Shown one piece after another: positions 7,890 through 29,291 of a DNA stretch of 32,000 bases. The position numbers and the translations under genes were made by a program. This DNA is from Desulfobulbus propionicus (GTDB lineage Bacteria > Desulfobacterota > Desulfobulbia > Desulfobulbales > Desulfobulbaceae): contig PDTD01000017.1 of assembly GCA_002748755.1 (NCBI GenBank), forward strand, positions 4,747 to 36,746, in the 5' to 3' direction. Position 1 is the stretch's first letter, and each line of letters starts with the position of its first letter. Under the pieces are notes generated by a model. The model was not told the DNA's origin and ran no database searches. It saw only the letters and a list, made by a program, of their open reading frames with translations.

Positions 7890-7891
7890 TT

Positions 7892-9078: not shown

Positions 9079-9200
9079 AGTTCCCCCTTGTTATCTCCTC
9101 TCTCATATCCGTACCTTCTTCTTGAATCCAGACCAAGCACTCCCCAGTGGCACCTCGGTCTCCAGTTGTTTCAGCCTTAAACCTGCAGCGTGGTGTCCCT

Positions 9201-10628: not shown

Positions 10629-10654
10629 AATACGTCTACTTAATGGTGTAAAAC

Positions 10655-10893: not shown

Positions 10894-12266
10894 TAGAGTA
10901 CATGGGTATTGACCATAACCACCCCGCTCAGCATGGACCCAACAATGCCCAGATATCCCTGATCGGTACCGGCAATATACAAATTTTTCCAGGGTGTTTT
11001 GCCCGTTGCCAGTTTAACAGGACTGCCGTAGACGGCACCAGCCTTTTTCCGGGTGAATCGCTCAATGGTAAGCGGGGTAAAACTGTCCTGAAAAACAATA
11101 TCCTCGGCATAGGGGCCAATAATCCTGCTGCTGCTTGCAACCGCCTCATGGGCGCAGCGCCTCTTTTCCTGCCGGTATTGTCTAGACGACAACGCCTGCC
11201 AGAGAGAATAATTGGCAGCATTGGTAACCCGTATCTGCGATTCTTCCATCTGTTCCAGCCCTTGAAAGTTTTGGGAAAAACAAATAACCCCCCATTGCGG
11301 ATCAATGAGTTCCCCTGGCTGTCTATAGCGCACCGAGTCGGCATGGCTGTAAAAAAGTATGGCCTCTCCGCTATGCAGCCTATCGGCAACATTCGGTTTG
11401 AGGACCGACAAGGTCTCCAAAAAGCTCATCCGGCCGGTATATTGTGCGGTCTCAGTCTGCCAACCGGTCAACCGTATGGTTTCTGGTATACCGACCGTGG
11501 AGACGATATGCTCTGCAGAAACAGACGTACCATCGGTAAAATGCGCTCTTTGCACCTTTTTCGAGTCATGCTCCAAGGTTTCAACAGCCTTGTTATAGCG
11601 AATCTCCCCCCCGAAGCGCTCGAATTGTTGCAGCACGAGCAGGAGAAAGTCCCGCATGGTGCCTTGGGGACGAAACAATCCTTCCTCGAAAAGAGCCCGG
11701 AACATGATGACAAACTGACCCAGACTCATGTCATCTTCTTCCGCGTTTCCGTAGACCATTGTCGGCAGGAGAATCATGCGCTCCAAAAGGGGTTCGGCAA
11801 GGTGATGGGATAAAAACGCGCGAGCAGACTGCCATGGTTGCACGCTAAAGGCATCATACTCTTTGACAGCCTGCCGCAGGCGTCGGAAACGATCAATACA
11901 GCCGGAGAAGGTCTGAGCAACCTCATCCTCCAGCAAGGCGACATCGTTTGAAAAGCGAATTGTAGCTGAGGGGAAACGTACAAGGGAATACTTCTGCGGA
12001 CATAGCTGGAACGTTTGACGGGAGAGTTTCAGCTGGCGAAACAACAGATTCAGGGGAGCTTTTTTTTCCCCTGGAAGAGCAAAATTCGTCATGGCATGCA
12101 GACCTGTCTCAAAAAACCGACCTTGCCTGTAAAAATAGGAGTTGAGTCCTCCCGGCAATGCATGCTGCTCAACAATAAGTGTCTTGACCCCGAAACGGGC
12201 GGCACGGATGCCTGCGGCAATGCCAGAGAGTCCGCCACCAATAACGAGGAGCTGATAATCAGCCAT
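10893..12266 (-). CDS. FAD-dependent oxidoreductase, CrtI-like fold, paralog 2
   Basis: 457 aa. N-terminus YQLLVIGGGLSGIAAGIRAARFGVKTLIVEQ followed by PGGL. C-terminal GTDQGYLGIVGSMLSG resembles paralog 1. Confidence 0.7.
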   Translation of the reverse strand: MADYQLLVIGGGLSGIAAGIRAARFGVKTLIVEQHALPGGLNSYFYRQGRFFETGLHAMTNFALPGEKKAPLNLLFRQLKLSRQTFQLCPQKYSLVRFPSATIRFSNDVALLEDEVAQTFSGCIDRFRRLRQAVKEYDAFSVQPWQSARAFLSHHLAEPLLERMILLPTMVYGNAEEDDMSLGQFVIMFRALFEEGLFRPQGTMRDFLLLVLQQFERFGGEIRYNKAVETLEHDSKKVQRAHFTDGTSVSAEHIVSTVGIPETIRLTGWQTETAQYTGRMSFLETLSVLKPNVADRLHSGEAILFYSHADSVRYRQPGELIDPQWGVICFSQNFQGLEQMEESQIRVTNAANYSLWQALSSRQYRQEKRRCAHEAVASSSRIIGPYAEDIVFQDSFTPLTIERFTRKKAGAVYGSPVKLATGKTPWKNLYIAGTDQGYLGIVGSMLSGVVMVNTHVL

Positions 12267-12319
12267 AGAAGTTGTACGCCTGCGCTATTCCCTGCTTTTT
12301 CAAGAGCCTGGCAGAATAA

Positions 12320-12571
12320 TCAGGTGTTTTTAAGTTTTGGCTCCAGATAGTTGACACAACTTGTCAAAGTAACCAGTTCTGGATATTCCTCTTCTGGAAT
12401 CTGCACCTGATATCGCTTGCGCAATTCCATGACAATATCCAAGAAATCCATGGAATCCAGATCAAACTGATCACGCAGGGGCTCGTCGGCATCCAGATTG
12501 TCAAAATCTGCTTCTTCATCTATCTCTTCAATGATTTCAAGGACAACATCCTTGATTTCCTCACGAGTCAT
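12320..12571 (-). CDS. Acyl carrier protein (stand-alone)
   Basis: 83 aa from the internal Met (MTREEIKD), preceded by GGAGAGG. Acidic, with the phosphopantetheine-attachment context DLDSMDFLDIV. The track ORF extends upstream to 12634, with no support for the extension. Confidence 0.8.
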   Translation of the reverse strand: MTREEIKDVVLEIIEEIDEEADFDNLDADEPLRDQFDLDSMDFLDIVMELRKRYQVQIPEEEYPELVTLTSCVNYLEPKLKNT

Positions 12572-12642
12572 TCGATAACCTCTCCTCTCCACACAATACC
12601 AGATAAACAAACCAGGGGACTTCTTGCCAGCCAATGGTCATA

Positions 12643-12858
12643 GCCCGAACTTCTCATGAACATTGTGCAGAAATAAAAAAAGTATTATAAAATCAATAAA
12701 CTAGGAAAAAAGTGTCACCAATCTCTCCAAAATATACATCAAAGCTCAGTTCGGCTGTCACCATCTTCGCCAGTGTTTTGACAGTACATAGAGGGTACGA
12801 GAATGCACTGCCCAAAACTGTGCATCTGGCACCGCCTGTGCTAATGAGAAATCCGGAA
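12643..12858 (-). mobile_element. MITE-family copy I (near full length, canonical core orientation) between the KS and ACP genes
   Basis: TA then GCCCGAACTTCTCATGAACATTG (reverse-complemented R arm) at 12643. CATCAAAGCTCAGTTCGG (inner arm), then a diverged core ending CTGGCACC, then GCCTGTGCTAATGAGAAATCCGG (reverse-complemented L arm) ending ~12856. Confidence 0.7.
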
Positions 12859-12943
12859 TCGTTTACGTTCACGTCTCCAACCAGTACCCGGGGGCAATGC
12901 CTCAGCAAGGCCGACAAAGCCGAAACACATACCACAAAAACAG

Positions 12944-14194
12944 TCAGTTTGCCATAAATCTCTTGACTATAACCACTGAATTTATCCCCAGCATCCCAAA
13001 GGAATTGTTAAGAATGGCATGCACCTCGGGGACTGTCCGCGGTTCATCAATGACCAGGCCGCGAAGGTTGCACGCCGGATCCAGTTCATCGATATTGATA
13101 GTTGGATGGACCATATGATCAGTAAAGGTCGGTAGGTTACATGCCAATTCCAACACGCCTGCCGCGCCCATGGCATGGCCGATGGTGGATTTGGTGTTAT
13201 TTATCCATGTGGTGGGGCAATCGTTGAAGAGTTCTCCGACAGCCCAGCACTCCTCCCCGTCCCCCTGGGGAGTCCCTGTGGCATGGGTATTGACAACGGT
13301 TATATGCTCTGGTGACATCCCCGCTTTTTTCAAGGCCATCTCCATACAGGCTTTCTGTCTGGGCCCATATGGCAGAACAAAGTCCCTTGCATCGGAGTTC
13401 ATGGCATAGCCTGCTATCTCACAATATATTGTGGCTTGGCGTTTCAAGGCCTTGTCCAGGCGCTCCAGGGTAAAGATGCAGCCTCCATCGGAAATAACAA
13501 TGCCGTTGCGCCCCTTGTCAAAGGGGCGACTGGCTTGAGTTGGATCTTCGTGCTCCGCCAATGCTCCTTGGGCTTTGAAGCTGGCAAAAATACCGAAAGA
13601 GCCTGTACATTCAGAAAAGCCACCACACAACGCCAGGTCCACCTCATCAAGCAGCAACATCTGAACCCCCTGGATCAGAGAGGCGTTGCCAGCAGCACAG
13701 GCAGCGCCAATAGAGTAGTGGGGACCGGTAATCCCCAGGTTCATGGTTATTTCACCAGCGGGATTATTCAATACGGTGCGGGGATTATGGTGGTGTGTCC
13801 AGTACTGGACGTTGTTGTCAAATTGGCCTATGTTATACACTTCATTTTCCGTTTCAACGGTTCCGTGTTCCGTCAGGCCAGTGTATACTCCAGTTCGGCT
13901 TTTATCATACTCTGTAAAATCGATCCGGGCATCGGTCAAAGCTTCGTTGGCACAATACACAGCCATACATCCGGCGCGGGTGCCCCTCTTGTTTTCACGC
14001 TTTTTACGGTATCGGGTTTCATCAAAACTGCACAGGCCTGCCGGATGAGGCCCCATATATCGCAAGTCCAGAGTGCCAATACCGCTCTTTCCCTCCAGTA
14101 CATTGCTCCTGAATTCTTTGAGGGAAGAAGCCCCGGGGGCCACCAACCCAACCCCGGTTATAACTATACGTTGTGAATCTGCTAATATGTTCAT
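12944..14194 (-). CDS. Beta-ketoacyl-ACP synthase, FabF/FabB-type
   Basis: 416 aa with active-site contexts GAACAAG (Cys), HATGTPQGD (His) and GHAMGAAG (His). First gene of the lipid locus. Confidence 0.85.
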   Translation of the reverse strand: MNILADSQRIVITGVGLVAPGASSLKEFRSNVLEGKSGIGTLDLRYMGPHPAGLCSFDETRYRKKRENKRGTRAGCMAVYCANEALTDARIDFTEYDKSRTGVYTGLTEHGTVETENEVYNIGQFDNNVQYWTHHHNPRTVLNNPAGEITMNLGITGPHYSIGAACAAGNASLIQGVQMLLLDEVDLALCGGFSECTGSFGIFASFKAQGALAEHEDPTQASRPFDKGRNGIVISDGGCIFTLERLDKALKRQATIYCEIAGYAMNSDARDFVLPYGPRQKACMEMALKKAGMSPEHITVVNTHATGTPQGDGEECWAVGELFNDCPTTWINNTKSTIGHAMGAAGVLELACNLPTFTDHMVHPTINIDELDPACNLRGLVIDEPRTVPEVHAILNNSFGMLGINSVVIVKRFMAN

Positions 14195-14535
14195 TCTCTA
14201 TCTTTTCTTCAACTGAGGTCTCCAGGCTCCTGGACTAAAACAATCGTCTGAGAGACTATACAAAAAGTTCTCACTATTCTCAGAGGATGCGAACGTGAGG
14301 ATAAGGAGCAGGCCAGTATAGGTCTGCTCAGACATGAGGAGTTGGATCCTGCGCCTGCCCTATCCGCATGCAGGCAAAAACCAGATCCAAAGCAGACAAA
14401 AAAGAATGCGGAAAACATCTGAAAAGGTCCATGCCGCCCTTTTGCTTATTTCTCAGAATACACCTGTACCCCTAAGTCGGTGAGCCCAGAGAGCAGTAAG
14501 CGGATATGCCCCTCAAAAGACCTGTGCACGCAGCG

Positions 14536-17181
14536 CTACTGCAGCAGTTTTCGGACTATCTCCGGCACTTCGGCCATGGCTTCACCCAGCTTATCAGGCA
14601 TAGAGCCACCGGCCTGAGCCATATCAGGCCGACCGCCCCCTTTTCCACCAACAATGGCAGCGACCTGCTGGACCACCTCACCGGCCTTGATTCTTGTGGT
14701 CAGGTCTTTGGAAACCAGAGACAACAGGGCAGCCTTACCTGCAAACTCGCCGCCAAGCACCGCGACTCCTGAGACCAGTTTATCCCGCACTTTATCACCG
14801 ATTTCACGGAGCGTCTTGGGGCTGTCCAATTGCACAAGGGATGCGACAACCGGCACACCAGCCACCTCAACAGCCCCTGCAATCATCTGCTCCAGATTGG
14901 CCAGGGACATGGAAGCATGTAACGAGGCAATCTCTTTTTCCAGCTCTTTTTGGCGTCTAAGCAAGGCGGCAATCTTGTCCGCTGCGCTCTCAAAAGGTCC
15001 GGCAACAGCTTCGGACACAGCAGCGACATTCCTGATCAAGCCATGCATCCAGGCAACGGCCTCGGCACCAGTCACCGCTTCGATTCGCCGTACGCCTGCA
15101 GCAATACCTGTTTCATGAATTATCTTGAAAAATCCTATGTTGCCGGTAGCAGAGGTATGTGTACCACCACAGAGTTCTTTACTGAAATTGCCGATAGAAA
15201 CCACCCGCACCGTATCTCCATATTTTTCTCCAAAAAGGGCTGTCGCCCCTTCGGCAATGGCCTGCTCACGCTCCATGACCTCTCCACTCACCCGGGTATT
15301 ACGCCTTATCTCATCATTGACAAGTTGTTCAATGCGGATGATTTCTTCAGGAGTAATCGGAGAGAAATGGGTACAGTCAAATCGTAATCGCTTGTCGTCC
15401 ACCAACGATCCGGCCTGTTTCACATGATCTCCCAAGACCTCTTTCAGGGCAGCATGCACAAGGTGGGTTGCTGTATGATTCAAAGCGACAGCGATTCTTC
15501 GCGCTCCCACCTCCAAACAGACGGCTTGACCAACTTTGGCCGTGCCTGCTTCTACCACGCCATGGTGGAGGATGATGCCCTCCGCTGGAGACGTTGTCTG
15601 CTCCACCAAAATCCGTCCATTCTGCCAGCGTATTTCTCCAGAGTCACCGACCTGTCCACCAGATTCTGCGTAAAAGGGAGTTTTCGCACAGACAAAACGA
15701 ACTCTTCTCCCCTGCCCGGCTTGGTCCACCAACTGCCCATGCTCATCAAGAATACCTATAAATTCCGACTCTTCAACCCGGGCGGCATATCCGGTGAAAT
15801 CGCACCGCGTTCCCTGCTCAAGCAGCGTGAGTACGCCCTCGTCCAGATGATCGATATCGCTTCCTTTCCATGACCTCCTGGACTGCTCACGCTGATGTTG
15901 CATGGATTGGTCAAATCCCTGCTGGTCAAAACCGACACCCCGCTCAATGGCAATATCGCGAACGATGTCCACGGGAAAACCGTAAGTATCATAGAGCGTA
16001 AAGATAAAGGTACCGTCAATGACGGCATTCTCGACACGTTTTTGCTGGAGACGCTCTATCTCCTGACCGAGCTTCTGCAAGCCATTGTCTAGAGTTTGGC
16101 CAAACCGTCTTTCCTCATTGCTCACCACTTTGGCAAGCAGCTTCTTTGTTTCTCCTAGGTGCGGATAGGCTGCCACCATATTCTCCGTCACTAAGGCGCA
16201 GACACCAGGAAAAAAGGAATCCAGTCCCAGGGCGCGGCCATAACGAATGGCTCTGCGCATAATTCTGCGCAGTACATACCCCCGCCCTTCATTGGACGGG
16301 AGTACGCCATCTGCCACCAGAAAGGTTGTTGCCCGGGCATGATCCGCAATGACCCGAAGTGAGACATCGTCCTGATCATTATCGTGATACTTTTTCCCTG
16401 CAAGTTTGGCTATATACTCAATAAGCGGGGTAAACAGATCACAATCAAAATTATTGTGTTTCCCCTGAAGAACGGCTGCAACGCGTTCAAGCCCCATGCC
16501 TGTATCAATGGAAGGCTTTGGCAGCGGGGTCATGTTCCCTTCTTCATCGCGATAGAACTGCATAAACACGAGGTTCCAGAGTTCCAGATACCGGTCACAA
16601 TCACATCCCAAAAAACAATCAGGCCTACCGCAGCCAAGGCTTTCCCCCTGATCGATATGAATCTCTGAACAGGGTCCGCAAGGCCCTGTGTCACCCATGG
16701 CCCAAAAGTTGTCTTTTTCGCCCATACGCACAATTCTACCAGCAGGAAGGCCTTGCACCTCTTCCCACAGTGCATACGCCTCATCGTCCTCTTTATAAAC
16801 GGATACCCAGAGTTTTTCGGGATCAATACCAAGTTCTACGGTCAGAAACTCCCAGGCAAAGGCAATAGCCTCCTTTTTAAAATAATCGCCAAAAGAGAAA
16901 TTTCCCATCATCTCGAAAAAGGTATGATGCCGGGCTGTATAGCCAACGTTCTCGAGGTCATTGTGCTTGCCGCCTGCCCGTACGCAGCCCTGGGCCGTTG
17001 TCGCTCGCACATAAGGGCGCTTTTCTTCACCCATGAATACCTTTTTGAACTGCACCATCCCTGCGTTGACAAAGAGCAGGGTCGGGTCATCATGGGGCAC
17101 AAGCGAGGAAGACGCTACCCTGGTATGACCATTTCCTTCAAAAAATTGCAAAAAACGTCTTCGGATCTCTTCTCCAGTCAT
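14536..17181 (-). CDS. alaS: Alanine--tRNA ligase
   Basis: 881 aa with class II AlaRS hallmarks: N-terminal FLQFFEGNGH, FANAGM-like VNAGMVQFK, the editing-domain HTATHLVHAAL / CGGTH zinc motif, and a C-terminal DHHA1-type GGKGGGRPDMAQAGG. Confidence 0.95.
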   Translation of the reverse strand: MTGEEIRRRFLQFFEGNGHTRVASSSLVPHDDPTLLFVNAGMVQFKKVFMGEEKRPYVRATTAQGCVRAGGKHNDLENVGYTARHHTFFEMMGNFSFGDYFKKEAIAFAWEFLTVELGIDPEKLWVSVYKEDDEAYALWEEVQGLPAGRIVRMGEKDNFWAMGDTGPCGPCSEIHIDQGESLGCGRPDCFLGCDCDRYLELWNLVFMQFYRDEEGNMTPLPKPSIDTGMGLERVAAVLQGKHNNFDCDLFTPLIEYIAKLAGKKYHDNDQDDVSLRVIADHARATTFLVADGVLPSNEGRGYVLRRIMRRAIRYGRALGLDSFFPGVCALVTENMVAAYPHLGETKKLLAKVVSNEERRFGQTLDNGLQKLGQEIERLQQKRVENAVIDGTFIFTLYDTYGFPVDIVRDIAIERGVGFDQQGFDQSMQHQREQSRRSWKGSDIDHLDEGVLTLLEQGTRCDFTGYAARVEESEFIGILDEHGQLVDQAGQGRRVRFVCAKTPFYAESGGQVGDSGEIRWQNGRILVEQTTSPAEGIILHHGVVEAGTAKVGQAVCLEVGARRIAVALNHTATHLVHAALKEVLGDHVKQAGSLVDDKRLRFDCTHFSPITPEEIIRIEQLVNDEIRRNTRVSGEVMEREQAIAEGATALFGEKYGDTVRVVSIGNFSKELCGGTHTSATGNIGFFKIIHETGIAAGVRRIEAVTGAEAVAWMHGLIRNVAAVSEAVAGPFESAADKIAALLRRQKELEKEIASLHASMSLANLEQMIAGAVEVAGVPVVASLVQLDSPKTLREIGDKVRDKLVSGVAVLGGEFAGKAALLSLVSKDLTTRIKAGEVVQQVAAIVGGKGGGRPDMAQAGGSMPDKLGEAMAEVPEIVRKLLQ

Positions 17182-17444
17182 TGCTCAACAAAAAAGTAAA
17201 AGTTATATCTAATCGGGCGGAAGGCAGCCCGGGCATGGATGTGCAGTCCCCCTGCAGGCATCTCTTTTGGTCCTGAAAAAAGAAAGCTGCATGATATACA
17301 CGAAATGTTCTCATGCCAATAAAAAAACACCTTCTGCCCTTGTCCAATGCAGGTCGGCAACGCAGGTCGACAACAAATGGGGGCCCAGGGAGCCGGTCTT
17401 GCAAAACCCGGCCCCTTTCCTTGTTCCTGCTCTGTCTGGAAAAC

Positions 17445-17478
17445 AAAACAGGCAGGGCACCCCTGCCCTGCCTGTTTT
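17445..17478 (-). terminator. Intrinsic (bidirectional-looking) terminator downstream of acs
   Basis: Perfect 14-bp stem AAAACAGGCAGGGC / GCCCTGCCTGTTTT with a 6-nt loop, and T-runs on both strands. Lies ~155 nt downstream of the acs stop, beyond repeat copy D. Confidence 0.6.
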
Positions 17479-17497
17479 GTTCTCTTCGGAAACTCTC

Positions 17498-17633
17498 GCC
17501 CGGATTGTTCATGGACATTTTGTCTCCTTTGAAAAAAAAGAGACAAAAACAGATGGATGTAATGTCCGTGAGCAGGTCCGAACTTCGACAAAATATGCAC
17601 CTGGCACAGCCTGAGCTGATAAGAAATCCAGGC
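17498..17633 (-). mobile_element. MITE-family copy D, short core-less variant, in the acs 3' region
   Basis: GCCCGGATTGTTCATGGAC (reverse-complemented R arm), tail with CAGATGGATGT, then only CTGGCACA (the first bases of the core), then GCCTGAGCTGATAAGAAATCCAGGC (reverse-complemented L arm). The last C plus TA is the acs TAG stop (17633-17635). Confidence 0.7.
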
Positions 17634-19621
17634 TAACTGAGCTGTTTTTTCCCTGCCACAAGCTGATCGACAACAGCCGGATCGGCCAGAGTCGAAATAT
17701 CGCCAAAATCAGCAAAATCATCGGCTGCAATCTTACGCAATATTCGACGCATGATTTTACCTGAGCGTGTTTTCGGCAGCCCCGGTGCCCACTGGATCAC
17801 CTCAGGGGTGGCAATGGGGCCTATCTCTTTTCGCACATGCATTCTCAACTCTGCAAGCAGCTCTTCGGTCTCCTCAGCCCAACTCATCAAAGTGACATAG
17901 GCAAAAATGCCCTGCCCCTTAATCGGGTGCGGCATGCCAACAGCAGCAGCTTCTGCCACGGCCTCGTGGGACACCAAAGCAGACTCGATTTCTGCTGTCC
18001 CCAGGCGATGGCCGCTGACGTTGATTACATCATCAAGACGACCCAGTATCCAGAAATAGCCATCCTCGTCGCAACGGGCGCCATCCTCGGGATCATAAAT
18101 ACCCTCATACCGGCTGAAATAGGTTCTCTTGTACCGCTCTGGATCGCCGAAAACCCCCCTGAGCATGCCTGGCCAGGGCCTGCGTATGACGAGATGTCCG
18201 CCCTCATTAACCCCAGCTTCCTCCCCTGCTTCATTGAGTATGGCCGCATCAATGCCAGGCAACGGAAAACTGGCGGAGCCGGGTTTCAGTGAGGTTGCAT
18301 ATGGCAGAGGAGCAATCATAATGCCGCCGGTCTCCGTCTGCCACCAGGTATCAACGATGGGCAATTTTTCCTTGCCCACGTTGACATAATACCACATCCA
18401 GGCTTCTGGATTGATCGGCTCACCCACTGATCCCAGGACGCGCAGACTGCTCATATCATAGCGCTCGGTATGCTCCACTCCCTCCCGCATAAGCGCTCGG
18501 ATAGCAGTCGGAGCAGTGTAAAAGATATTGACCTTGAATTTCTCGACGATTTTCCAAAATCGATCTGGCGCCGGGTAGTTGGGGACTCCCTCAAACATGA
18601 CAGAGGTAGCACCCAGACCAAGAGGGCCATAGAGGATATAACTGTGGCCTGTTATCCAGCCAATGTCGGCTGTACACCAGTATACATCGTCGTCCTTGAG
18701 GTCAAAAGCCCACTGGCAGGTATGCATGACGTAGGTCAAATAGCCTCCAGTGGTGTGCACCACTCCTTTGGGTTTCCCAGTGGATCCCGAGGTATAGAGA
18801 ATAAAAAGCAGATCCTCTGCATCCATGGATTCCGGTGCACAGTCCGATGTAATATCCCTGGCCTCCATTTCTTCGTGCCACCAGCAGTCTCTTCCTTCCT
18901 GCATAGTATGTACTTCAGTCTGTCCCCGGTTGACCACAATGCAGGTCTCCACGCTGTCACATTCCTCCAAGGCCTCATCCGCATTGACCTTGAGCGGAAT
19001 AGCCTTGCCAGAACGCAAAACAGCATCAGCGGTAATCAGCACCTTTGCTTCGCAATCCTGAATGCGACTCTGCAGGGCAACAGCAGAAAAACCTGCAAAA
19101 ACGACAGAATGCACTACCCCCAGCCTAGCACAGGCCAAAAGTGAAATAGCCAACTCCGGTATCATCGGAAGATAAATGGCAACCCGATCACCTTTTTTCA
19201 CGCCTTTCTTTTTTAAGACATTGGCAAATCGACACACCTCCGTATGCAGCATCTGGTAGGTATAAACCCGTACATCCTCTTCAGGTTCACCCTGCCATAT
19301 GAGGGCTGCCTTGTTCCGCCTGCCATCCGTCAGATGGCGATCCAGACAATTTGTTGAAATATTAAGTTTTCCGCCCTTGAACCACTGCACTTCGGGTTCC
19401 GTCAGATCAGCCTCAACCACCGTGTCCCATTTTTTGTCCCAGGTAACGAGTTGTTCTGCCCTCTCCGCCCAAAAGCCTTCTGGATCGTCCATGGATCGTT
19501 TATAGGCTGCCCGGTACTCCTCCATAGATTTGATCCAGGCCTGCTCACGACCTTCCTCTGGCGGCTCAAACGTACTGCCTGCACTCAACAAGCTTGTAAT
19601 TTTAATGTCCTGCTCACTCAT
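17633..19621 (-). CDS. acs: Acetyl-CoA synthetase (AMP-forming)
   Basis: 662 aa with [20 protein letters not shown] and C-terminal [13 protein letters not shown] motifs typical of Acs. Confidence 0.95.
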
Positions 19622-19690
19622 ATTTCCCTCTAACTGAAGCTTTAGGTGTCAGATAAAATGTCTGTTCTTTTAGCGGATCACTGTTGCCTA

Positions 19691-19911
19691 GCCCGGACTT
19701 CTCATCAACTCAGGGAGACCAGGTTCGGGAATTTTTGGTACCTCATTGTGCTTGGGTATATAAGCGACCAAAATACTGCCGAAGGGGTACCGCCCGGGCT
19801 GAGCGCTGGTGAACAGTTTGAAGAAACTGGCCCTTTATCGTATCTTCAAACTTATTGTCTTTCTTTTATATTTTTTCCAATCTCCACACATGTTCATGAG
19901 GATACCAGATC
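19691..19911 (+). mobile_element. MITE-family copy B (full length, canonical core orientation, decayed R arm)
   Basis: TA then GCCCGGACTTCTCATCAACTCAGGG, a core with TTTGGT-N17-TATATA and GCCGAAGGGGTACC, the inner arm GCTGAGCGCTGGTGAACAGTTTG, and the tail ending CATGTTCATGAGGATACCAGATC. Confidence 0.7.
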
Positions 19912-19955
19912 AAGTATCTTCCCCCACGTACCTCTATCACAAAGCAGGTGCACAA

Positions 19956-19975
19956 CCCTCATAAATTCAGGTGGT
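19956..19975 (+). repeat. Solo L-arm/core-start fragment of the MITE family
   Basis: CCCTCATAAATTCAGGTGGT resembles the left junction of copy C (TTTCTCATAAACTCAGGTGGTGCC). Confidence 0.35.
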
Positions 19976-20170
19976 TGAAAAGCTGTCGGGAAACGACCGT
20001 ATGTATCGGAAACAGCCTCGATTCTTGCTGGCCAAAGAAAAAAGAAAACCGAACATTATCAAGACCCTCCCTTTCTTGATAAAAATATACGAGTACTCTT
20101 CCACGCCTGCTTTGTCAAGGTTTATGAATCAAGAGTTCCCCCACCTCGCCCCCTCCCCTTTCTTCTGCTA

Positions 20171-20392
20171 ACCCGGATTTCTCATCAGCTCAGGTGGTGC
20201 CAGGCTCAGGAATTTTGGGTACCTCATTTCACTTGGGTATATGGGTAACCAAAAAACTGCCGAAGAGGGTACCCCCTGAACTGAGCTTGATGAACAGTTT
20301 GTCGTAATGTGAGCCTGCTTACGGGCAACACCTACATCTGTTTTTGTCTCTTTGTTCTCAAATGAGACAAGATGTTCATGAGACATCCGGGC
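20171..20392 (+). mobile_element. MITE-family copy A (best-preserved, 222 bp; used here as the reference)
   Basis: TA | ACCCGGATTTCTCATCAGCTCAGG (L) | ~80-bp core at 20195-20274 | CCTGAACTGAGCTTGATGAACAG (inner inverted copy of L) | ~95-bp tail | GATGTTCATGAGACATCCGGGC (R) | TA. L and R are inverted repeats (CCCGGAT-T/G-TCTCAT). Confidence 0.8.
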
Positions 20393-20952
20393 TAAAATTT
20401 GGCCCCGGCTATACGCCGCGTTCCATTCTCAAGACATGTTCAGCTCCTCAACAAAATCTGGGGGAAGATTCTGCTGAAAAACCGGTTTTAGATTCTTCAA
20501 AAGATTGTAAGGATGCAAGGTTGTAGCGATAATCTCCTTGAGAACAGACTCAAACTTGACAGTTTTGCGAAACTGTTGGATACTTTTTTTAAGGAGTCCC
20601 CTGAACCCGTGCATATTCAACAAAAGCGCAGATACCAGGCAGCAGTGTGCTCGACTTAAAAAAACTATTGCCGTCATGGCCAGCACGGCAGATGGGTCGT
20701 CCCAGAGGGGCTTCGGCATGCTGCTATGCGCCCTGCCTACAACGAGAACCAGCTCCTGTCACCTTGGCTCTTGCTTCTCTTTGAGGACAATAGGCAGCCC
20801 AGGCACAAGCGCTCAAACCTCACGGACTCAGGAATCACCCAAATAAGCGCCCTGACAAAGGGTATCTTACTTACAAAAATTACCAAAAAACTGCCTTACT
20901 TCGGCAGGCGTGCAGGCTCAGCCTGCTGACAAGATAAGAAGACAGGTATGCT

Positions 20953-23628
20953 GTGACTTTTGCTCTCAAACTTCTCACATTTGCACTTAGCCGCCCACAA
21001 AAAACACTTACCCTGGGACTTGTTTTTTTCATTCTGTCCGGCTTTGCCTTTGCCTCCAGTTTTTCCTTTATCATCTCCCGCCACTTGAGCAAAGGCCTCC
21101 CGCATCCGACTCTTTTTAATGAGGAAGAATCAAGCCTCGCTTACCAAGACGACCTGATTGTTGTATTGCGCAACCCCGGAAACACAAAGGGTGTTTTCTC
21201 ACCGGATTATTTACAAAAGGTCAACCAATTCTGCTCGGCATGGAAAAGGTATTCCGGGGAAAACCCAGCACACCCCAGACTCCTGGCTACCGATTACCTC
21301 GGTATCTGCAATGTGGATATGGTCTCTGAAACAACATTGGGTAGCGCTCCATTAACGCCCCTGCTCCCTGAACAATTCACCTTTACCGACGCAGATATTG
21401 ATCAACTTATCCAGAAGATGAACCATAACATCTTTTTCAAGGACCTGATCATCTCAAAAGGGAACCAGTCAACAGCCCTCTATTTGCCCCTGTATGCCCC
21501 GGGAACGACGGCGGCCCTTACTTCTGTCAGCGATGAACTGGTTCGGCGTTTGGAGCTTCAACCGGATCAGGTGTGCAATGCCGGTCTTGCTCTGTACCGT
21601 GAGACCTTGTTTCATCAGGGGCATCGGACAGCGCTCCTTTCTTCTCTACTCGCCGGCTGCCTTATCTGGATAGGTGTTGCCTTAGTTAACAAAAAAGCAA
21701 GCCATGGGATTGTGATTCTGCTTCCGACAGCCAATGCGACTCTAGCCGTCCTACTCGTTCAGACTGCAACAGGAATGCGTGAAGATATCTTTCTCTTCAC
21801 CACGCCTGCTCTTGTCGCCGCCACCACGCTGATACAGGCGTTATGTTTTGCACATCGAATAAACAACAGCACGAAATGGTCGCCAAAGGAACCGGAAAAA
21901 ATTATCTCTGTCCTGGAACCCCTCCTCCCTGCCTGGCTCCGCCTCATGTACGCCCTGATTGCCGCCTGCCTTTCAATAGGTCTGCTTGCACCGTCTCCCC
22001 TGCTGAACATGGCCATGATACTCGCGGTTGGTATCACCATGGCATGGTTCATGCCTCTGTTTTTTGTCCCCGCAGGGCTGGTCGTCTTTGGCCCAACAAA
22101 AAGAAAAAACAAGCCGACAACGTCCTACCTGCTGCCTCCAGAAAGACCGGAGAACACCTTTCATTTTCCGTATGTGGACCGTCTTGTCCGCAACTACTCA
22201 ACAGTGACCTTTGCCGCGGTCAGTGCCTTTACCTTGGCCTGCGCCTTCAGTACCGCGCTTCTCAAACAGCAGGACACCCTCATTTCCTGGTATGGGAAGA
22301 ACCACCATTTCCAGAGAGCGGAACAACTCATCAATAAAAATTTTGCAGGTGCCTACAAACTCATTCTCCGCCTGGAAGCTTCCGACAGAATGTCCCCTTT
22401 GGAAACAATTGCTGGACAACTGAAAAGTGATCTTTTCAGACCTCTAGCCTCACAGCCGGATATCCGTACACGCATCATGCATCAGATAGACGAAGCCCTC
22501 GCCGCCAGCACCAGCAAAGCCGAACTGTACCACACCCTGGCCCACCAGTGGGAGCAGGAACTCAACCATACGCTGGCCGGTGATATCCTTGCCCAGGATC
22601 TCTGGTCCATTGCACTGGACAGCCTTGCAGCTATTACTTACGACGAAAAACCCTTTTCCCATCCTGACATTCTTCGCTACATCGACCAGCTTTCCCTCTA
22701 TTTACGTGACAGGAGCGCAGCCTCCAAGGTCTTTTCAATTGTGGACCTGACCAAAAAGATGCATCAAGATCTCTACGATGGTGCAACACAGCTGTACTCC
22801 ATCCCTGCAACCACCAACGCCGTTCTCCAAACCTGGCAGCAGTATGGGAAAGGCAACCATCCTGAATCTTTTTCCCGCTTTATTAACAGCTCCTACAACG
22901 CCATAAATATTCTCTTGATCCTCAAAGATCCTAGGCCAAAAACACTCCAGCAACTCCAGGACCGAACCCTGCAATACCTGCAGCGGGAAAAACCACCCAT
23001 TCCCCTGAAAATCAGTTGGCAAGGCAGCCTTCAAGACCACATAACCTGGAGTCACCAACTCAGCCTGGCCACCTTGCTGCGATGGGGGACATTCCTGCTC
23101 ACCGCTGCCATCCTCTTCGGAGCGTTCACACAATCGCTGATCAGCGGCAGCGCACTCCTTGGCACTGGCGTTCTGAACCTTATCATCACCCTTGGCATGA
23201 TGGGGCTGCTCGGTATTCCCATCAGCACAGCGTCCACGGCACTTATCGGCCTGCCTCTACTCACTGCGTCCATCTCCACCTGGTATATCCTCTACAGTGT
23301 GACCAGCCTGATAGAAGATGGGGCATCTTATGGCAACGCCCTCAAACAAACCATTGAACACAGTTCGTTTCCCCTTCTCCTGAGTTGCCTGTGTATCACA
23401 GGCGGGGGATTCGTCTTTGCTTTCTGCCCATATACGCTCTTTCATGGAGCAGCTTTCATTGGTTTTACCTCTACTCTTGCCGCCTGCTTGACCGCACTTC
23501 TTCTTCTGCCTTCTCTTGGCTGGCTCCTCTATAGGGAAGCCGAGATACAGCTCTCACCGGCGCCGATTAGAGGAAAACCCGCACCACCTGCAAAGATCGA
23601 CAGGGTTACCGCAGAGCCGGAAAAATAA
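20953..23628 (+). CDS. MMPL/RND-superfamily membrane exporter (predicted lipid or hydrophobic-compound transporter)
   Basis: 891 aa. Topology by eye: TM1, a large soluble loop, a cluster of ~5 TM helices, a second large loop (aa ~440-700), and a second ~5-6 TM cluster, which is the 12-TM two-loop RND/MMPL architecture. GTG is the first possible start after an in-frame TAA. Confidence 0.7.
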   Translation: MTFALKLLTFALSRPQKTLTLGLVFFILSGFAFASSFSFIISRHLSKGLPHPTLFNEEESSLAYQDDLIVVLRNPGNTKGVFSPDYLQKVNQFCSAWKRYSGENPAHPRLLATDYLGICNVDMVSETTLGSAPLTPLLPEQFTFTDADIDQLIQKMNHNIFFKDLIISKGNQSTALYLPLYAPGTTAALTSVSDELVRRLELQPDQVCNAGLALYRETLFHQGHRTALLSSLLAGCLIWIGVALVNKKASHGIVILLPTANATLAVLLVQTATGMREDIFLFTTPALVAATTLIQALCFAHRINNSTKWSPKEPEKIISVLEPLLPAWLRLMYALIAACLSIGLLAPSPLLNMAMILAVGITMAWFMPLFFVPAGLVVFGPTKRKNKPTTSYLLPPERPENTFHFPYVDRLVRNYSTVTFAAVSAFTLACAFSTALLKQQDTLISWYGKNHHFQRAEQLINKNFAGAYKLILRLEASDRMSPLETIAGQLKSDLFRPLASQPDIRTRIMHQIDEALAASTSKAELYHTLAHQWEQELNHTLAGDILAQDLWSIALDSLAAITYDEKPFSHPDILRYIDQLSLYLRDRSAASKVFSIVDLTKKMHQDLYDGATQLYSIPATTNAVLQTWQQYGKGNHPESFSRFINSSYNAINILLILKDPRPKTLQQLQDRTLQYLQREKPPIPLKISWQGSLQDHITWSHQLSLATLLRWGTFLLTAAILFGAFTQSLISGSALLGTGVLNLIITLGMMGLLGIPISTASTALIGLPLLTASISTWYILYSVTSLIEDGASYGNALKQTIEHSSFPLLLSCLCITGGGFVFAFCPYTLFHGAAFIGFTSTLAACLTALLLLPSLGWLLYREAEIQLSPAPIRGKPAPPAKIDRVTAEPEK

Positions 23629-23717
23629 TCAGTTCCCGACTTGCAAGAACAAACACCAAATGCTGTAAAGCAAACAACTGCAACCGATGTCTAAAAAAAC
23701 CAATGAACCAACACCTA

Positions 23718-23936
23718 ACCTGGACCGCTCATGAATACCTGGTTTCACTTGAGAAAAAATAAAAACAGATGGATGTGATCTCCGTGATCCGGCCTGCATT
23801 TCAACAAACTGTTCACCCAAGGCCTGCCCAGGCAGTGCCAGGTCCGGTAGTTTTGGGTAACCCGTTCTCCTTGGGTATATGTGCTGCCAAAATACTGCCG
23901 AAGGGGGTACCCCCTGGGCTGATGAGAAATCCAGGC
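23718..23936 (-). mobile_element. MITE-family copy G, with arms in reverse orientation but the core flipped relative to the arms
   Basis: TA then ACCTGGACCGCTCATGAATACC (reverse-complemented R arm) and a tail with CAGATGGATGTGAT. The inner arm ACAAACTGTTCACCCAAGGCCTGCCCAGG is followed by the core at 23833-23912, which reads in the same plus-strand sense as the core of copy A. It ends with CCTGGGCTGATGAGAAATCCAGGC (reverse-complemented L arm). Confidence 0.8.
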
Positions 23937-24259
23937 TGACACAATGCAGGGAAACATTCAGTCGTCCACCTTTCTCCTGCCTCAATCCAGGACGGATGCA
24001 GGCAGGGGGACCAGCACCGGATGTCATCCACGCTCTGGGCTTTGGCGACCATCAGGCCCCCTGTCCATAACGGCGTCCTCCGCTCCGGATGCCCCAACGA
24101 CAGCACCTTTGAGTGTTCATTCTGTGATCAAAATTCCGCGTATCTCTATTCCCTTTTTGGGAAAGAAAGCTTATATGTTTTCCTTATTCGCCTCACAAAT
24201 GCAGAGGAATCTGCATTGCTCATTAAAAAATGCCGTGCAGAGGATGCTCCCAAGAGGTG

Positions 24260-24344
24260 CACCTATACCCAACTATACCCAAGCAGAATGAGGTACCAAA
24301 AACAACCGTACCTGACACCGCCTGAGCTGATGAAAAACCCGGGC
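24260..24344 (-). repeat. MITE-family copy E, truncated (L arm plus half of the core)
   Basis: The reverse complement reads GCCCGGGTTTTTCATCAGCTCAGG CGGTGTCAGGTACGGTTGTTTTTGGTACCTCATTCTGCTTGGGTATAGTTGGGTATAGG. The element stops in mid-core. Confidence 0.6.
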
Positions 24345-24403
24345 GGGCAAGCAGGATGTTACAGTACCCAGCACAGTCCCCTACACTACCAGGAGAGCCC
24401 ATA

Positions 24404-24625
24404 ATGATTATAAACGACTGGATTCACGTTATAGCCGGCTTATTCATTCTCATCAGTCTTGCCTTGGGAGCCGACCTCAGCGGCAATCCCCTCTTCATAA
24501 GCAAATACTGGCTACTTTTCACAGCTTTTGTAGGACTTAATCTTTTTCAGTTCGGTTTGAGCAAATTTTGCCCAATGGCGCTGATCCTCAAAAAACTCGG
24601 AGTACCCGAATCTAAAACGCATTAA
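24404..24625 (+). CDS. DUF2892 (YgaP-like) two-TM membrane protein
   Basis: 73 aa from MIINDWIH, preceded by AGGAGAG. Two hydrophobic helices and the C-terminal FCPMALILKKLG motif typical of DUF2892. The track ORF start at 24356 lies in repeat-derived sequence. Confidence 0.6.
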   Translation: MIINDWIHVIAGLFILISLALGADLSGNPLFISKYWLLFTAFVGLNLFQFGLSKFCPMALILKKLGVPESKTH

Positions 24626-24669
24626 AAGGCAGGTTATTTTGCCAAGCTTCATTCAAGATAAAAACAGGT

Positions 24670-25617
24670 ATGACCATGACCACCCACACATTGTATGACC
24701 TAGTGATTGTAGGAGGCGGCCCTGGAGGTATGACCGCAGGGATATACGCCCAACGGGCCGCACTCAAGACCATTCTTATAGAAAAAGGCTATCCCGGCGG
24801 CCAGATGGCTGCAACCGATACGATAGAAAACTGGCCAGGAACCGAGAGCATCACCGGACATGAAATGTCGGAAAACTTTCTTGCCCATGTCAAGGCCTAT
24901 AATCTGCCCATTCTACAGGAAGAAGTAGCGGCCGTGGTACCCGGAACACCGTACCACATTGTCCGGCTCGTCAATGGGGAGGAATATCCATGCCATGCGG
25001 TCATCATTGCCGTGGGCGGCAGCCCTCGAAAACTTGGAATCCCAGGCGAACACGACTATTACGGCAAAGGGGTTTCCTATTGCGCAGTCTGCGACGGTTT
25101 CTTTTTTCGCAATAAGACCGTAGTCGTCATCGGGGGTGGAGATTCAGCAGCAGAGGAATCCCTGTACCTGGCCAAAATAGCAAAAAAAGTGTACCTGGTC
25201 CACAGGCGTGATACGCTACGTGCAAGCATGATCCTTCAGGAAAAGGTCCAAGCTGAACCGATAATAGAAATCCTCTGGAACACGGTCGTCAAAGAGATCA
25301 AAGGAGACGATTTTGGAGTCAACGCGGTGAAAATTGAGGATACGAAAAGTGGTGCCCAAAATTGCCTGGAAACCGACGGGGTTTTTGTCTTCATCGGATT
25401 CAAACCCAATCGCCAGATCATTCCAGCTGACACCCCCATGGACGCAGAGGGGTACGTGGTTACAGACTGCAAAGGGGAGACAAACAATCCCGGCATTTAT
25501 GTCATAGGCGACCTCAGACAAAAATATGCCAAGCAGATTGTGGTTGCCGCCGGTGAAGGTGCCACTGCCGCTCTTGCGGCAGCACACTATATTGATTCCA
25601 AAGAAGCCATATCCTAA
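24670..25617 (+). CDS. trxB: Thioredoxin-disulfide reductase (low-Mr type)
   Basis: 315 aa with VIVGGGPGGMTAG (FAD), the redox-active CAVCDG motif, VVIGGGDSAAEE (NADPH) and C-terminal GDLRQKYAKQIVVAAGEG. Confidence 0.9.
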   Translation: MTMTTHTLYDLVIVGGGPGGMTAGIYAQRAALKTILIEKGYPGGQMAATDTIENWPGTESITGHEMSENFLAHVKAYNLPILQEEVAAVVPGTPYHIVRLVNGEEYPCHAVIIAVGGSPRKLGIPGEHDYYGKGVSYCAVCDGFFFRNKTVVVIGGGDSAAEESLYLAKIAKKVYLVHRRDTLRASMILQEKVQAEPIIEILWNTVVKEIKGDDFGVNAVKIEDTKSGAQNCLETDGVFVFIGFKPNRQIIPADTPMDAEGYVVTDCKGETNNPGIYVIGDLRQKYAKQIVVAAGEGATAALAAAHYIDSKEAIS

Positions 25618-25703
25618 ATCACAGCTAAAGACAGTTCTGGAGGCCGGAGCGCCCTGCTTCCATGCCCAAGTGGCCAGAAGAGGGCGTTGGCCGAAAAGGG
25701 CTA

Positions 25704-25913
25704 CCCCAAATTTCTCATAAACTCAGGTGGTGCCAGGTCCGGAAATATTGGGTAACACGTTATACTTGAATATATGCGTTGCCAAAAGACAGCCGCCTGG
25801 GCGGACCTTGGGTGCACAGTTTGTCGACAGTTAAACTGGCTCACCGATATCACATCCACTTGTTTTTATATATTTTTCTCAAATGAGAGGCTATGTTCAT
25901 GCCATATCCGGAC
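25704..25913 (+). mobile_element. MITE-family copy C (full length, canonical core orientation)
   Basis: TA then CCCCAAATTTCTCATAAACTCAGG, a core with TTGGGT-N17-TATATG, the inner arm GGTGCACAGTTTGTCG, and the tail ending CTATGTTCATGCCATATCCGGAC followed by TA. The terminal C plus TA is the TAG stop of the mlaC-like gene (25913-25915). Confidence 0.75.
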
Positions 25914-26539
25914 TACGAATTGGCATTGGGATTTGCCTTTAATGCAGCAATCTTGGCTTCAAGTTGCGCCATGAGTCCCTCGAACTTTTCTTTCCGTACT
26001 ATTGTCTGAAATTGCTCCAGATAATTCCGAATCAAGCTGACGCCCTCGACAACAACGTCATAAATGAGCCACTTCTCTCCTCTCTGGATCAGAATATAGG
26101 ATACAGGTATCTGGGTGCTTCCATCCAGAAACATGGTCTGCACTTCCGCCCTCCTGCCCCGAATTCTCTCCTTGAGGAACTCTATTCGTTGCCCTGAGTA
26201 CCTGTCAACCTGGCGGACATACGCATATTTTAACAATTCTGTAAACAGCTCGGTAAATTGAGATTTCTCCTCTTTGGACAGGGAGCGCCACTGCGAACCA
26301 AGAACCCGTTTGGACATTTCTTCAAAGTCAAACCCTTGGCGAGCCACAGACATAACCTGCTCAACCTTGTCCTCGTTATTTTTCATGGAGTAGGAAGCAT
26401 CGGCTAAGATCTCGGTAATTTCACTTATCATCGGTTGCAGTTGTTCTGTCGGCCCCTGCGCTATCGCAACGGCTTGCTCTGCAAGCCCCCATAAACAGAA
26501 AAAAGGAATCATAAGGATAATAAAAAAATATCGTTTCAT
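25913..26539 (-). CDS. mlaC: MlaC/Ttg2D-family periplasmic lipid-binding protein
   Basis: 208 aa from MKRYFFIILMIPFF (signal peptide), preceded by GGGAGAG. The central FDFEEMSKRVLGSQWRSLSKEEKSQFTELFTELLKYAY region matches the MlaC/toluene-tolerance family pattern. The track ORF extends to 26644 without support. Confidence 0.75.
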   Translation of the reverse strand: MKRYFFIILMIPFFCLWGLAEQAVAIAQGPTEQLQPMISEITEILADASYSMKNNEDKVEQVMSVARQGFDFEEMSKRVLGSQWRSLSKEEKSQFTELFTELLKYAYVRQVDRYSGQRIEFLKERIRGRRAEVQTMFLDGSTQIPVSYILIQRGEKWLIYDVVVEGVSLIRNYLEQFQTIVRKEKFEGLMAQLEAKIAALKANPNANS

Positions 26540-26703
26540 TTTTCTCTCCCGGTTATTCCATGCGAATACACATGCTTCGCAGAGAGTAGAACTCAACAAA
26601 AGGGGAACGTCTTCCCTATCCACAATAGTCACAATAGTGCACACTCAAGACATTTGCAATATATGTCCCAATACAGCACGTCTGGCATTCTGATTGCGCG
26701 CAG

Positions 26704-26952
26704 CTCGAATTTCTCATCAGCTCAAGCCAAATTCCTCATAATAATTGTAAGCAAAAAAAAATAATATAAAAACGATTCCTTAAAAAAGAGCGACTTTGTA
26801 GCAAATAGCTCCAAAATATTCCCCAAAAGCGGCAGCGCCAGAGTGGACTATGGGCCCATTGTGCCCAAGATCCAGACTGGGTATTGGCGACATAGCCATC
26901 TGTTTCTTATTTTTTTCTCTCAAACGAGACTAAATATTCATAAGCGATGCGG
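26704..26952 (+). repeat. Degenerate MITE-family copy F, whose R arm overlaps the MFS gene 3' end
   Basis: L-like CTCGAATTTCTCATCAGCTCAAG at 26704-26726. Tail CATCTGTTTCTTATTTTTTTCTCTCAAACGAGAC followed by R-like ATTCATAAGCGATGCGG. The interior is largely replaced or diverged. Confidence 0.4.
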
Positions 26953-28305
26953 TGTAAGCCGCGGCAGGCAGATCAGGGAGACCAGGCCCAATCCCACCAA
27001 CAGATACCAGGGAAACCAATGGAGAGAGTCTATAAAGGCGGCATTTTCTATGAGAGGTTCATCCCACTGGGGATGGGCCAGACGTTGCTTTTCTCTGGAC
27101 ATGAAGAGCAACCCCGCATAGAGCATCCCGATCAGGCCATAGGCAGCGTTGAAGGCCAACCCCTTAAAACTCAAGACAGTTGCCCTTTCTGCCGAGGAGG
27201 TCATCGCGTTGAGATAGTGGCTAGTAAAAAACGAGGTTGCCATCAATCCTAAAAAAATGATCAGCATGGGGAGTACCCCCAGATAGGGAATGAACAGGGT
27301 CAGGCCGAAAAGAGCGGAGAGCATGGCAACTGAAAGTACGGCCACATTAACACCGGGAGTGAAACGCTCCGTCATCCGGCGGGCCACCCTTGGAACCAGC
27401 AAGCCCACCACAGCGACCATCGACCCTAAAACACCAAAAGTCGATTCAGGGAGATGGATAAGACGATAGTACTGGCTGGTCATAGTCACCAAGAGACGCA
27501 AGGTGTGATCAAACACAGCGGCATAAAGAATGACTGCCAGGGCAAAAGGAGTTTTCAGTATCCACCTGCCTGCGGACATGGTCAAGCCTGTCACCGAGGC
27601 GACAGTGGTTCTCTTCCTTTCCTCTACAGACTTGTGCACCTGGGTATGTGGATCTTTCATCAAGAAGGTGACCAGACAGGCAAACAGAGAAAAGAGTAAG
27701 GTCAGGTAAACCGGATATCTCATCGTTACCTGCTGGGGCAACACCACATCTATGCCGGACCAGTGCAAAACCGCCTGCACCACTCCCGGATCGTATACTG
27801 CAGCGCCCAGGGTCATGGCGACCATAAACCCGACATTCTGAGCCCACATCTGCACCTCAAGTACCCTGGGCCATTGTTTCTCCATGCCCTGCTCTACCAG
27901 AGAATCGTAGGCCAGCGCCTCATCGGCACCACTGGCCATAGCCTCTGCCAGCCCACTGAGAATACGGTTCACCAGAAAAACTGAAAAAACCACCCGCATA
28001 TTACCCAAGGGAACAAAAGCGAGCAAAGCCATTTCAATCACCATGAGCAGACTCGTGGCAAGCAACAGTTTTCTTCGACCAAAAAAATCAGCCAAGGCGC
28101 CGGAAGGGACCTCAGCCAAAACTATGGTAAAAGCCCAGGCCGTGTTCAGCAGGGAAAACTGCTCTATGGTCAGTCCATAGTCAAGAAAAAGAATGGTGAA
28201 GACCGGATAATAAAAACGGGCATTAAAAAGCACACGAAAAAGGACAAAAAGCCTGATATTGGGCTCCCTAAAAGGGGATTTCTTTCCTGGCGCCATAGAA
28301 TTCAT
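26938..28305 (-). CDS. MFS transporter
   Basis: 455 aa with ~12 hydrophobic segments. A GRRK loop follows TM2 (DFFGRRKLLL), typical of the MFS motif A. Confidence 0.8.
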   Translation of the reverse strand: MNSMAPGKKSPFREPNIRLFVLFRVLFNARFYYPVFTILFLDYGLTIEQFSLLNTAWAFTIVLAEVPSGALADFFGRRKLLLATSLLMVIEMALLAFVPLGNMRVVFSVFLVNRILSGLAEAMASGADEALAYDSLVEQGMEKQWPRVLEVQMWAQNVGFMVAMTLGAAVYDPGVVQAVLHWSGIDVVLPQQVTMRYPVYLTLLFSLFACLVTFLMKDPHTQVHKSVEERKRTTVASVTGLTMSAGRWILKTPFALAVILYAAVFDHTLRLLVTMTSQYYRLIHLPESTFGVLGSMVAVVGLLVPRVARRMTERFTPGVNVAVLSVAMLSALFGLTLFIPYLGVLPMLIIFLGLMATSFFTSHYLNAMTSSAERATVLSFKGLAFNAAYGLIGMLYAGLLFMSREKQRLAHPQWDEPLIENAAFIDSLHWFPWYLLVGLGLVSLICLPRLTPHRL

Positions 28306-29291
28306 AAACAGTTAAATATAGCATCATATTGGACGTATTGTGTTTCTTTTTCTATACTTTCACTATCAAGTATCAAATGACGGACAGAGTCCAGCCAGTT
28401 TAACAATGAAGCTATCAGTAATCAGTACATTTCCATTTCATCTTTTACTTCTACTTATCAAAATCACTATTTCTCAGAATAGCAGATCCGGACAAAGTCA
28501 TCCCAGAGAATACCCTCACCCAGCATCCCCCAGCTGTTCTTTGGTTCCAGCTTTCCACCGAATCGCGTATGGAAACCGCCGAGGGCGCCAACGACAGCAC
28601 TTCAAGAGCATTATGTGCAAAGCTTTATAGGCGATCTCGTTATTTTTGCTTGCACACCCTACTGTATTCCAAAAAATTATCTCAGCATTATCAGCTAATT
28701 ATTTATTTTTTTTAGGGAAATCCAGTTATTCCATATAAAAGCATTGCATGTCAACAAAATAATGGGTAGTGGTACATTCCATTTAAAAGTTGCTGATCTT
28801 TCTAGATCTTTCAAACTTATCCAGGAAGTTTCAGTGTTAGAATACACCTCGCCCCCCTTGCCAAGACATCCTCTGACCTGCTTTGTGTTTGTTATTCCTC
28901 CTAACCAATGTCACCCAAACCACTGCAGGAGGGCAACTTCGGGCACAACTTTGCCTTCAAGTTGATATGGGAACCGAAAAATTTAAACAAGTTAAAAACT
29001 TCATCAGACAAATCTGTGGGTAAAAACAAGTACAGGCAAATATACAAGGTTATGATATAGCTTGATTTCTCTGAGTGTATCGCTTCTCAAACCATAGGAT
29101 TTTCTCATGGTCAGTGTTGCTTTCTTGTTCAACCCTTCCCCTATGCCTGCTGAAAACTCTTTGTTTGCATGAAAGGAGTTCAGGATCAGCGGCTTGTGGT
29201 GTCCCAGGCAAGGGCTCCCTTTTTAAGGTAAGGTGATTTGATGAGGAAACCCTCATGGCTCATGCCTGAGAAAAAATGGAGAAGTGCTTTA

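Follow-up and report, generated by a model that had tools for sequence, protein, structure and literature searches.

The copy of a dispersed repeat located at positions 23716–23937 of the window (the whole 32-kb stretch of DNA that was analysed) raises the question of why its central module reads against its own arms, and whether such a module is a switch that flips or the trace of a single rearrangement. The initial annotation, in which this copy was designated G, described its 80-bp core as flipped relative to the flanks between two short inverted repeats and called the architecture inverton-like.

The window comes from a 149,978-bp contig of a MAG (alaS PIE57700.1, locus tags CSA33_, sequencing run SRR6011892). 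The nearest AlaRS relatives belong to termite-gut MAGs (Emb289P4bin76, Nt197P4bin9) and a Desulfobulbaceae bin (loci L012–L014); since they are only 71–72% identical, the species label Desulfobulbus propionicus given to the MAG at NCBI looks too specific and is probably wrong. The genes of the window are housekeeping only. They comprise those of ATP synthase subunits, of a fatty-acid/aryl-polyene-like cluster, of an RND-like protein of 891 residues and of an MFS transporter, together with alaS, acs, trxB, mlaC, pqiA and a ygaP-like gene. Searches of the window for tRNAs and Rfam families were negative. The gene run on the minus strand at about 2000–14200 resembles an aryl-polyene or specialised lipid biosynthesis cluster, and encodes a 3-beta-HSD/epimerase, an AMP-binding enzyme, an alpha/beta hydrolase, a KAS III, two short-chain reductases, a FabA-like dehydratase (ApeI/ApeP-like hits), two amine-oxidase-like flavoproteins and a KAS I/II.

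Copy G is located between the gene of the RND-like protein and the ygaP-like/trxB genes. The former (20953–23628, plus strand) encodes 891 residues with no Pfam match; the closest homologue that has a name, at 50% identity, is annotated in Desulfogranum japonicum as an “RND transporter family protein”, and a distant ENA match carries MMPL/Patched/sterol-sensing domains. The search for orthologous G loci through homologues of this protein returned only a 100%-identical fragment, PDWI01097655.1, which ends short of G, and the D. japonicum protein, which at 50% identity is too distant for intergenic comparison. PDWI01097655.1 (locus L008) matches 20895–23075 at 99.9% identity, with one indel that shortens the ORF to 650 aa, and thus represents the same organism in a second sample or assembly. 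The search with the ygaP-like gene led to the same Logan contig only.

The reference for the anatomy of G is copy A, a full canonical copy on the plus strand, with GCTCAGG at 20188–20194, the core at 20195–20274 and CCTGAACTGAGC at 20275–20286, as had been annotated. The components of G are as follows:

23716–23937, minus strand (set by the arms): copy G, the whole element, about 219 bp, delimited with nhmmer and the consensus modules.
23716–23832, minus strand: R arm, tail and inner arm of G; 78/104 positions identical to the reverse complement of the copy A segment 20275–20400.
23826–23832, no strand: left bracketing inverted repeat of the G core, GCCCAGG, read directly; base of the hairpin stem.
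23833–23912, plus strand: G core, a quasi-palindromic hairpin module of 80 bp, inverted relative to its own arms.
23913–23919, no strand: right bracketing inverted repeat of the G core, CCTGGGC (CCCTGGGC side), read directly.
23913–23937, minus strand: L arm of G (terminal inverted repeat); 23/28 positions identical to the reverse complement of the copy A L arm.

Both arms, the inner arm and the tail of G therefore lie in reverse, and the core reads forward. The same arrangement is given by nhmmer with separate modules: the part beyond the core (“rest”, 23718–23832) on the minus strand (E 3.6e-15), the L arm (23913–23937) on the minus strand, and the core (23835–23911) on the plus strand (E 4e-13). 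In the segment-wise alignment the cores of A and G share 61/80 positions (76%) on the same strand, against 46/79 (58%) when one is reverse-complemented. Compared with the family consensus, the G core scores 94 on the plus strand and 24 on the strand of its arms, where the background of 2000 shuffles is 13 ± 2 with a maximum of 25. The core consensus is itself 71% identical to its own reverse complement, so that the orientation call depends on some 24 diagnostic positions, the loop CTTGGGTATAT among them; all are unambiguous in G. The repeats GCCCAGG and CCTGGGC around the core form a perfect 7-bp inverted pair, whereas the repeat of the family consensus is about 10 bp long and imperfect. The central module of G is inverted relative to its own arms, exactly between the two repeats and with unchanged flanks, which bears out both the flip and the boundaries of the initial annotation.

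The family to which G belongs was defined by a MAFFT alignment of 16 copies, with a consensus of 227 bp and the layout TA|GCCCGGATTTCTCATCAGCTCAGG – core – CCTGGGCTGACCTTTGGTGCACATTTTGTCGAAAT...TTCAAATGAGACAAAATGTTCATGAGAAATCCGGGC|TA. The terminal inverted repeats are about 19 bp long (GCCCGGATTTCTCATSA; terminal repeat motif GCCCGGATTTCTCAT) and are present, as GCCCGGATTTCTCATCA... and ...TCATGAGAAATCCGGGC, in the consensus and in most copies. A TA dinucleotide stands directly outside the left end in 8/13 copies and outside the right end in 9/13. At least 11 copies or fragments occur in the 32-kb window, all of them intergenic, and nine more in 43 kb of other contigs; they lie between genes only, in either orientation relative to the genes. 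Apart from G, the window contains:

6825–6851, plus strand: solo R-arm fragment.
10851–10895, plus strand: solo tail/R-arm fragment.
12642–12857, minus strand: copy C, divergent canonical.
17492–17635, minus strand: copy D, with an 86-bp internal deletion (consensus 35–120) and GGT microhomology at the junction.
19689–19907, plus strand: copy B, canonical L arm, core and inner arm, with a decayed tail.
20167–20399, plus strand: copy A, full canonical, with L arm, core, inner arm, tail and R arm.
24273–24344, minus strand: copy E, truncated; L arm and left half of the core in the same orientation.
25700–25917, plus strand: copy I, full canonical.
26702–26952, plus strand: copy J, L arm and tail/R arm, with an A-rich stretch (about 70 nt, ...AAGCAAAAAAAAATAATATAAAAACG...) in place of the left half of the core, whose right half is still recognisable.

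Two pairs of these copies enclose genes. Copies A (plus strand) and G (arms on the minus strand) flank the 891-aa gene in inverted orientation and look like the ends of a composite transposon; given the density of the element, this is probably a coincidence. Likewise, inverted R-arm-like ends at 10851–10895 and 12641–12685 (45 nt, 80% complementary) flank an amine-oxidase-like gene (10893–12266); the first is the solo fragment and the second belongs to copy C.

The mean identity of the copies to the consensus is about 78% (55–85% between pairs), which indicates that the family is old. Searches for relatives of the element gave the following results; (i) no protein relatives with the six-frame translation of the consensus as query (E ≤ 10); (ii) no Rfam matches, at gathering thresholds over the whole window and at E ≤ 1 over 19600–26000; (iii) no blastn match of the consensus among PLSDB plasmids; (iv) no match of the exact core pattern CTTGGGTATATN6CCAAAANNCTGCC in GTDB representative genomes or IMG/VR; (v) no match of the element profile in 1.27 Mb around alaS from 80 related genomes; (vi) no copy in the loci of the nearest AlaRS relatives (L012–L014). 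The core pattern does match five loci in the metagenome contigs PDWJ01, which probably derive from the same organism, and these loci were added to the sample of copies. Judged by these searches, the family appears to be restricted to this lineage.

Small size, the lack of coding function, many dispersed copies and terminal inverted repeats, usually next to TA, make up the anatomy of a MITE. Derivatives of IS630/Tc1-mariner elements have such an anatomy, with TA as target. The present element may accordingly be an IS-derived MITE with a TA target, the name MITE being a classification by anatomy because neither a parent transposase nor an empty site was found; it is referred to here as MITE-like. 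Among bacterial MITEs, or small interspersed palindromic repeats, are the Correia/NEMIS elements of Neisseria, the enterobacterial ERIC and the pneumococcal RUP. The present element resembles them in its 100–250 bp of non-coding sequence with terminal inverted repeats and TA at both ends, in the many dispersed intergenic copies in both orientations, in the occurrence of internal-deletion variants and in folding into long hairpins. It differs from them in having no similarity in Rfam, PLSDB, the GTDB representatives, IMG/VR or the 1.27 Mb of the 80 relatives, in having no known cognate transposase, and in one copy with an inverted central module; we know of no description of a central-module inversion in the Correia/NEMIS, ERIC or RUP families.

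The consensus is open in several reading frames, one of them stop-free over 75 codons, and gene callers are misled as a result. An ORF of 140 aa called in the Logan contig (window 17178–17600, minus strand) begins within copy D, and an ORF of 132 aa (window 23629–24027, minus strand) spans G and has no family match.

The frequency of the flip was determined for copies that retain a recognisable core together with one arm or more, in the window, in loci L001–L005 and in a 9-kb Logan extension to the right of the window (L010), about 75 kb in total; to the left, the Logan contigs added no sequence. The core has the orientation of its arms, as scored against the consensus, in 14 of the 15 copies (A, B, C, E, I, L001, L005, the one further copy in the extension, and two each in L002, L003 and L004), and G is the only flipped one. 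At a 50:50 ratio of the two orientations the probability of at most one flipped copy among 15 is 0.0005. The core pattern was searched on both strands, so the census is unbiased with respect to arm orientation; as the sampled 75 kb are part of a multi-megabase genome, the proportion of flipped copies could exceed 1 in 15. The orientation survey proposed in the initial annotation thus yields 14 canonical copies against one.

The core is a long quasi-palindrome with a hairpin stem of about 40 bp. The short repeats TCAGCYCAGG and CCTGGGCTGA fold together with the 80-bp core into one hairpin with the loop TTATACTTGGGTATATG; one side of the stem is the left half of the core plus its short repeat (TCAGCTCAGGTGGTGCCAGGTTCGG.AGTTTTTGGTA), and the other is the right half (TTGCCAAAAGACTGCCGAAGATGGTACCGCCTGGGCTGA). 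The short inverted repeats bracketing the core are the base of a hairpin stem common to all copies. In the core of the best-preserved copy (L003) the folding energy is −54.8 kcal/mol for the sense strand (z −5.9) and −29.6 for the other strand. With a hairpin of 37 pairs specified by hand, 81% of cells are paired across 12 copies, compared with 31–42% in slid controls; this pairing does not exceed that of column shuffles, and no compensatory covariation beyond the shuffles was found in this set. RNAalifold, applied to the first alignment, gave a meaningless structure. The missing covariation indicates a hairpin inherited from the master copy and now decaying. A selected, strand-specific RNA was considered, as the sense strand folds much better in some copies, and was dropped in view of the covariation result and of the weak overall strand asymmetry of wobble-compatible mismatches (25 vs 16). 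No claim is made from the conservation of the loop and the right stem, which is inflated by the retrieval of five loci with that very pattern.

Such hairpins are a classic substrate of replication errors. Template-switch mutation at quasi-palindromes is reportedly the subject of the Ripley model and of work by Lovett and Sinden. The flipped core of G probably goes back to one inversion whose endpoints were the short inverted repeats at the hairpin base; template switching during replication is one process that could have caused it. The sequence of events would be the following. The central module of G would have been inverted once, between the repeats at the hairpin base; the cause would most likely have been a replication or repair error at the inverted repeat, in which the polymerase switched template between the arms; the outcome would be a static and probably neutral variant, fixed at the G locus. 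Such an event would cost the element nothing essential, since a hairpin sequence also folds into a hairpin when reverse-complemented.

Template switching between the arms of an inverted repeat is described to invert the spacer and to homogenise the arms, in a reversible manner (PMC8604942). G resembles these cases in the exact reverse-complement replacement between arms, in its position at a hairpin-forming sequence, in the perfect complementarity of its arms and in the companion microhomology deletion of copy D. Most canonical copies have GCTCAGG on the left and CCTGGGC on the right, and G has the pair GCCCAGG/CCTGGGC; the C in place of the usual T on the L side fits arm homogenisation, at a single position. 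There are two differences. The reported spacers comprise a few bases (2–5 bp) between arms of at least 9 bp (PMC8604942), whereas 80 bp are inverted in G between arms of 7–10 bp, though this spacer is self-complementary; and the event in G is read from paralogous copies rather than from an ancestor–descendant pair.

Copy D had been interpreted as lacking the core almost exactly between the boundaries of the flip in G, so that flip and excision would share one pair of repeats. The breakpoints of D are in fact different. Of the core, D retains the first 8 nt (CTGTGCCA); its sequence then picks up at GGTGCATATTTTG, close to where the inner arm ends, so that both the right-hand short repeat and most of the inner arm are missing. 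This microhomology-flanked deletion is a separate event of a type that palindromes stimulate, not an excision at the inversion sites, and would represent a second, independent instability of the same palindrome. Another small instability of the hairpin is seen in copy L004a (L004:234–329), whose loop carries a 16-nt tandem duplication (CATTATACTTGGGTAT twice).

An alternative to inversion in place is a nested origin, in which the core and its short repeats would be an independent mobile hairpin, inserted into G in the opposite sense. The core is indeed bracketed by its own inverted repeats, copies without the core (D) or with an altered one (J) exist, and insertion in either orientation is normal for transposons. 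On the other hand, no solo core without arms occurs in the approximately 75 kb, no duplication surrounds the core, and D, with its remnant of the core and its loss beyond the right repeat, does not represent an empty site. The common orientation of 14 of the 15 copies is in keeping with one master element in which the core was already present, and the short repeats run on into the hairpin stem instead of forming separate termini. A nested origin is thus considered unlikely.

Comparably low probability is assigned to ectopic gene conversion, by which the reversed G copy would have been repaired from an oppositely oriented copy through the palindromic stem, the core being pasted in the wrong sense. 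The neighbourhood contains many copies of either orientation (plus strand: A, B and I; minus strand: C, D and E), and palindromic stems offer homology in either orientation. However, no sampled copy stands out as similar to the G core, the highest identity of 78% being that of typical pairs, and the homology between copies is low (about 70%), with stems that are short for homologous recombination.

An active inverton, whose core would be flipped reversibly at G, and perhaps elsewhere, by a tyrosine or serine invertase encoded in trans and would thereby alter local expression, is the reading closest to the initial annotation. G shares with the invertons fimS of E. coli, hin of Salmonella and the invertible promoters of Bacteroides a segment with clean boundaries between short inverted repeats, lying opposite to its usual orientation. 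The canonical core also contains weak promoter-like hexamers: TTGGTA-16-TATAGT was flagged in copy E (9/12 match), a weak TTGGCA-15-TATAAT was read by eye on the antisense strand of the consensus, and G stands between the RND-like gene and the ygaP-like/trxB genes. The remaining features point away from a switch. The consensus promoter scan flagged no site in the cores of G, A, B and I, and G does not preserve the TATAAT-like sequence of the loop; a demonstrated promoter is a feature of the known invertons that G lacks. They typically also have a nearby invertase gene, whereas neither recombinases of the tyrosine or serine type nor transposases are encoded in the 32-kb window (Pfam scan of its ORFs) or in the adjoining 9 kb (genes listed for the extension), 41 kb in all; the recombinase that the initial annotation suggested looking for was not found there. 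The unit of 80 bp and its 7-bp perfect repeats are much shorter than in literature examples of invertons, with 14–24-bp repeats around approximately 360–400 bp, and the repeats of G belong to the hairpin of a dispersed repeat and form its base in all copies. Finally, the copies are old and decayed, only one of 15 is flipped, and two assemblies show a single orientation at G. An active inverton is not supported by the data and is regarded as improbable. Of the inverton-like architecture, the segment inverted between short repeats stands, and recombination mediated by these repeats comes close to the favoured single inversion; the likeness to fimS, hin and the Bacteroides invertons finds no support. 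In its broadest form, the proposal would make the core a switching module that flips in vivo at G, and possibly in other copies, through a trans-acting recombinase or reversible template switching, and that would re-orient the weak promoter-like hexamers towards the downstream ygaP-like/trxB genes; this form is very doubtful.

Two Logan contigs from run SRR6011892 are 100% identical to window 13781–29074, and one of them passes through G unbroken, so that an independent assembly reproduces G exactly and in the same single orientation as the MAG contig. The contigs (L006 and L007) meet at 20175–20196, where they overlap by 22 nt within the L arm of copy A. This break was examined as a hint of heterogeneity and rejected; 33 nt there are identical to the family consensus, the contig is unbroken through the core, and the break is most simply a repeat-induced branch of the graph. 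That G is an assembly artefact at the inverted repeat is scarcely credible, for although hairpins and repeats can confuse assemblers and a Logan contig does break in copy A, that break is of the ordinary repeat-induced kind, the two assemblies agree through G, and the perfect repeat of 7 bp lies far below the assembly k, which leaves no ambiguity of orientation.

If the core truly switched, a mobile element would be spreading an invertible unit of unusually small size, and a dispersed MITE family would carry many miniature invertible switches. If instead the single inversion holds, the family is a previously undescribed and very dense one in an uncultured Desulfobulbaceae-related host, averaging one copy or fragment in roughly every 3 kb of the window, and G and D would provide a clean natural example of an 80-bp palindrome-centred inversion and a microhomology deletion at the same hairpin. 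It would also be a caution for tools that predict invertons from the inverted repeats of static genomes, because hairpin repeats with flipped paralogous copies will mimic invertons.
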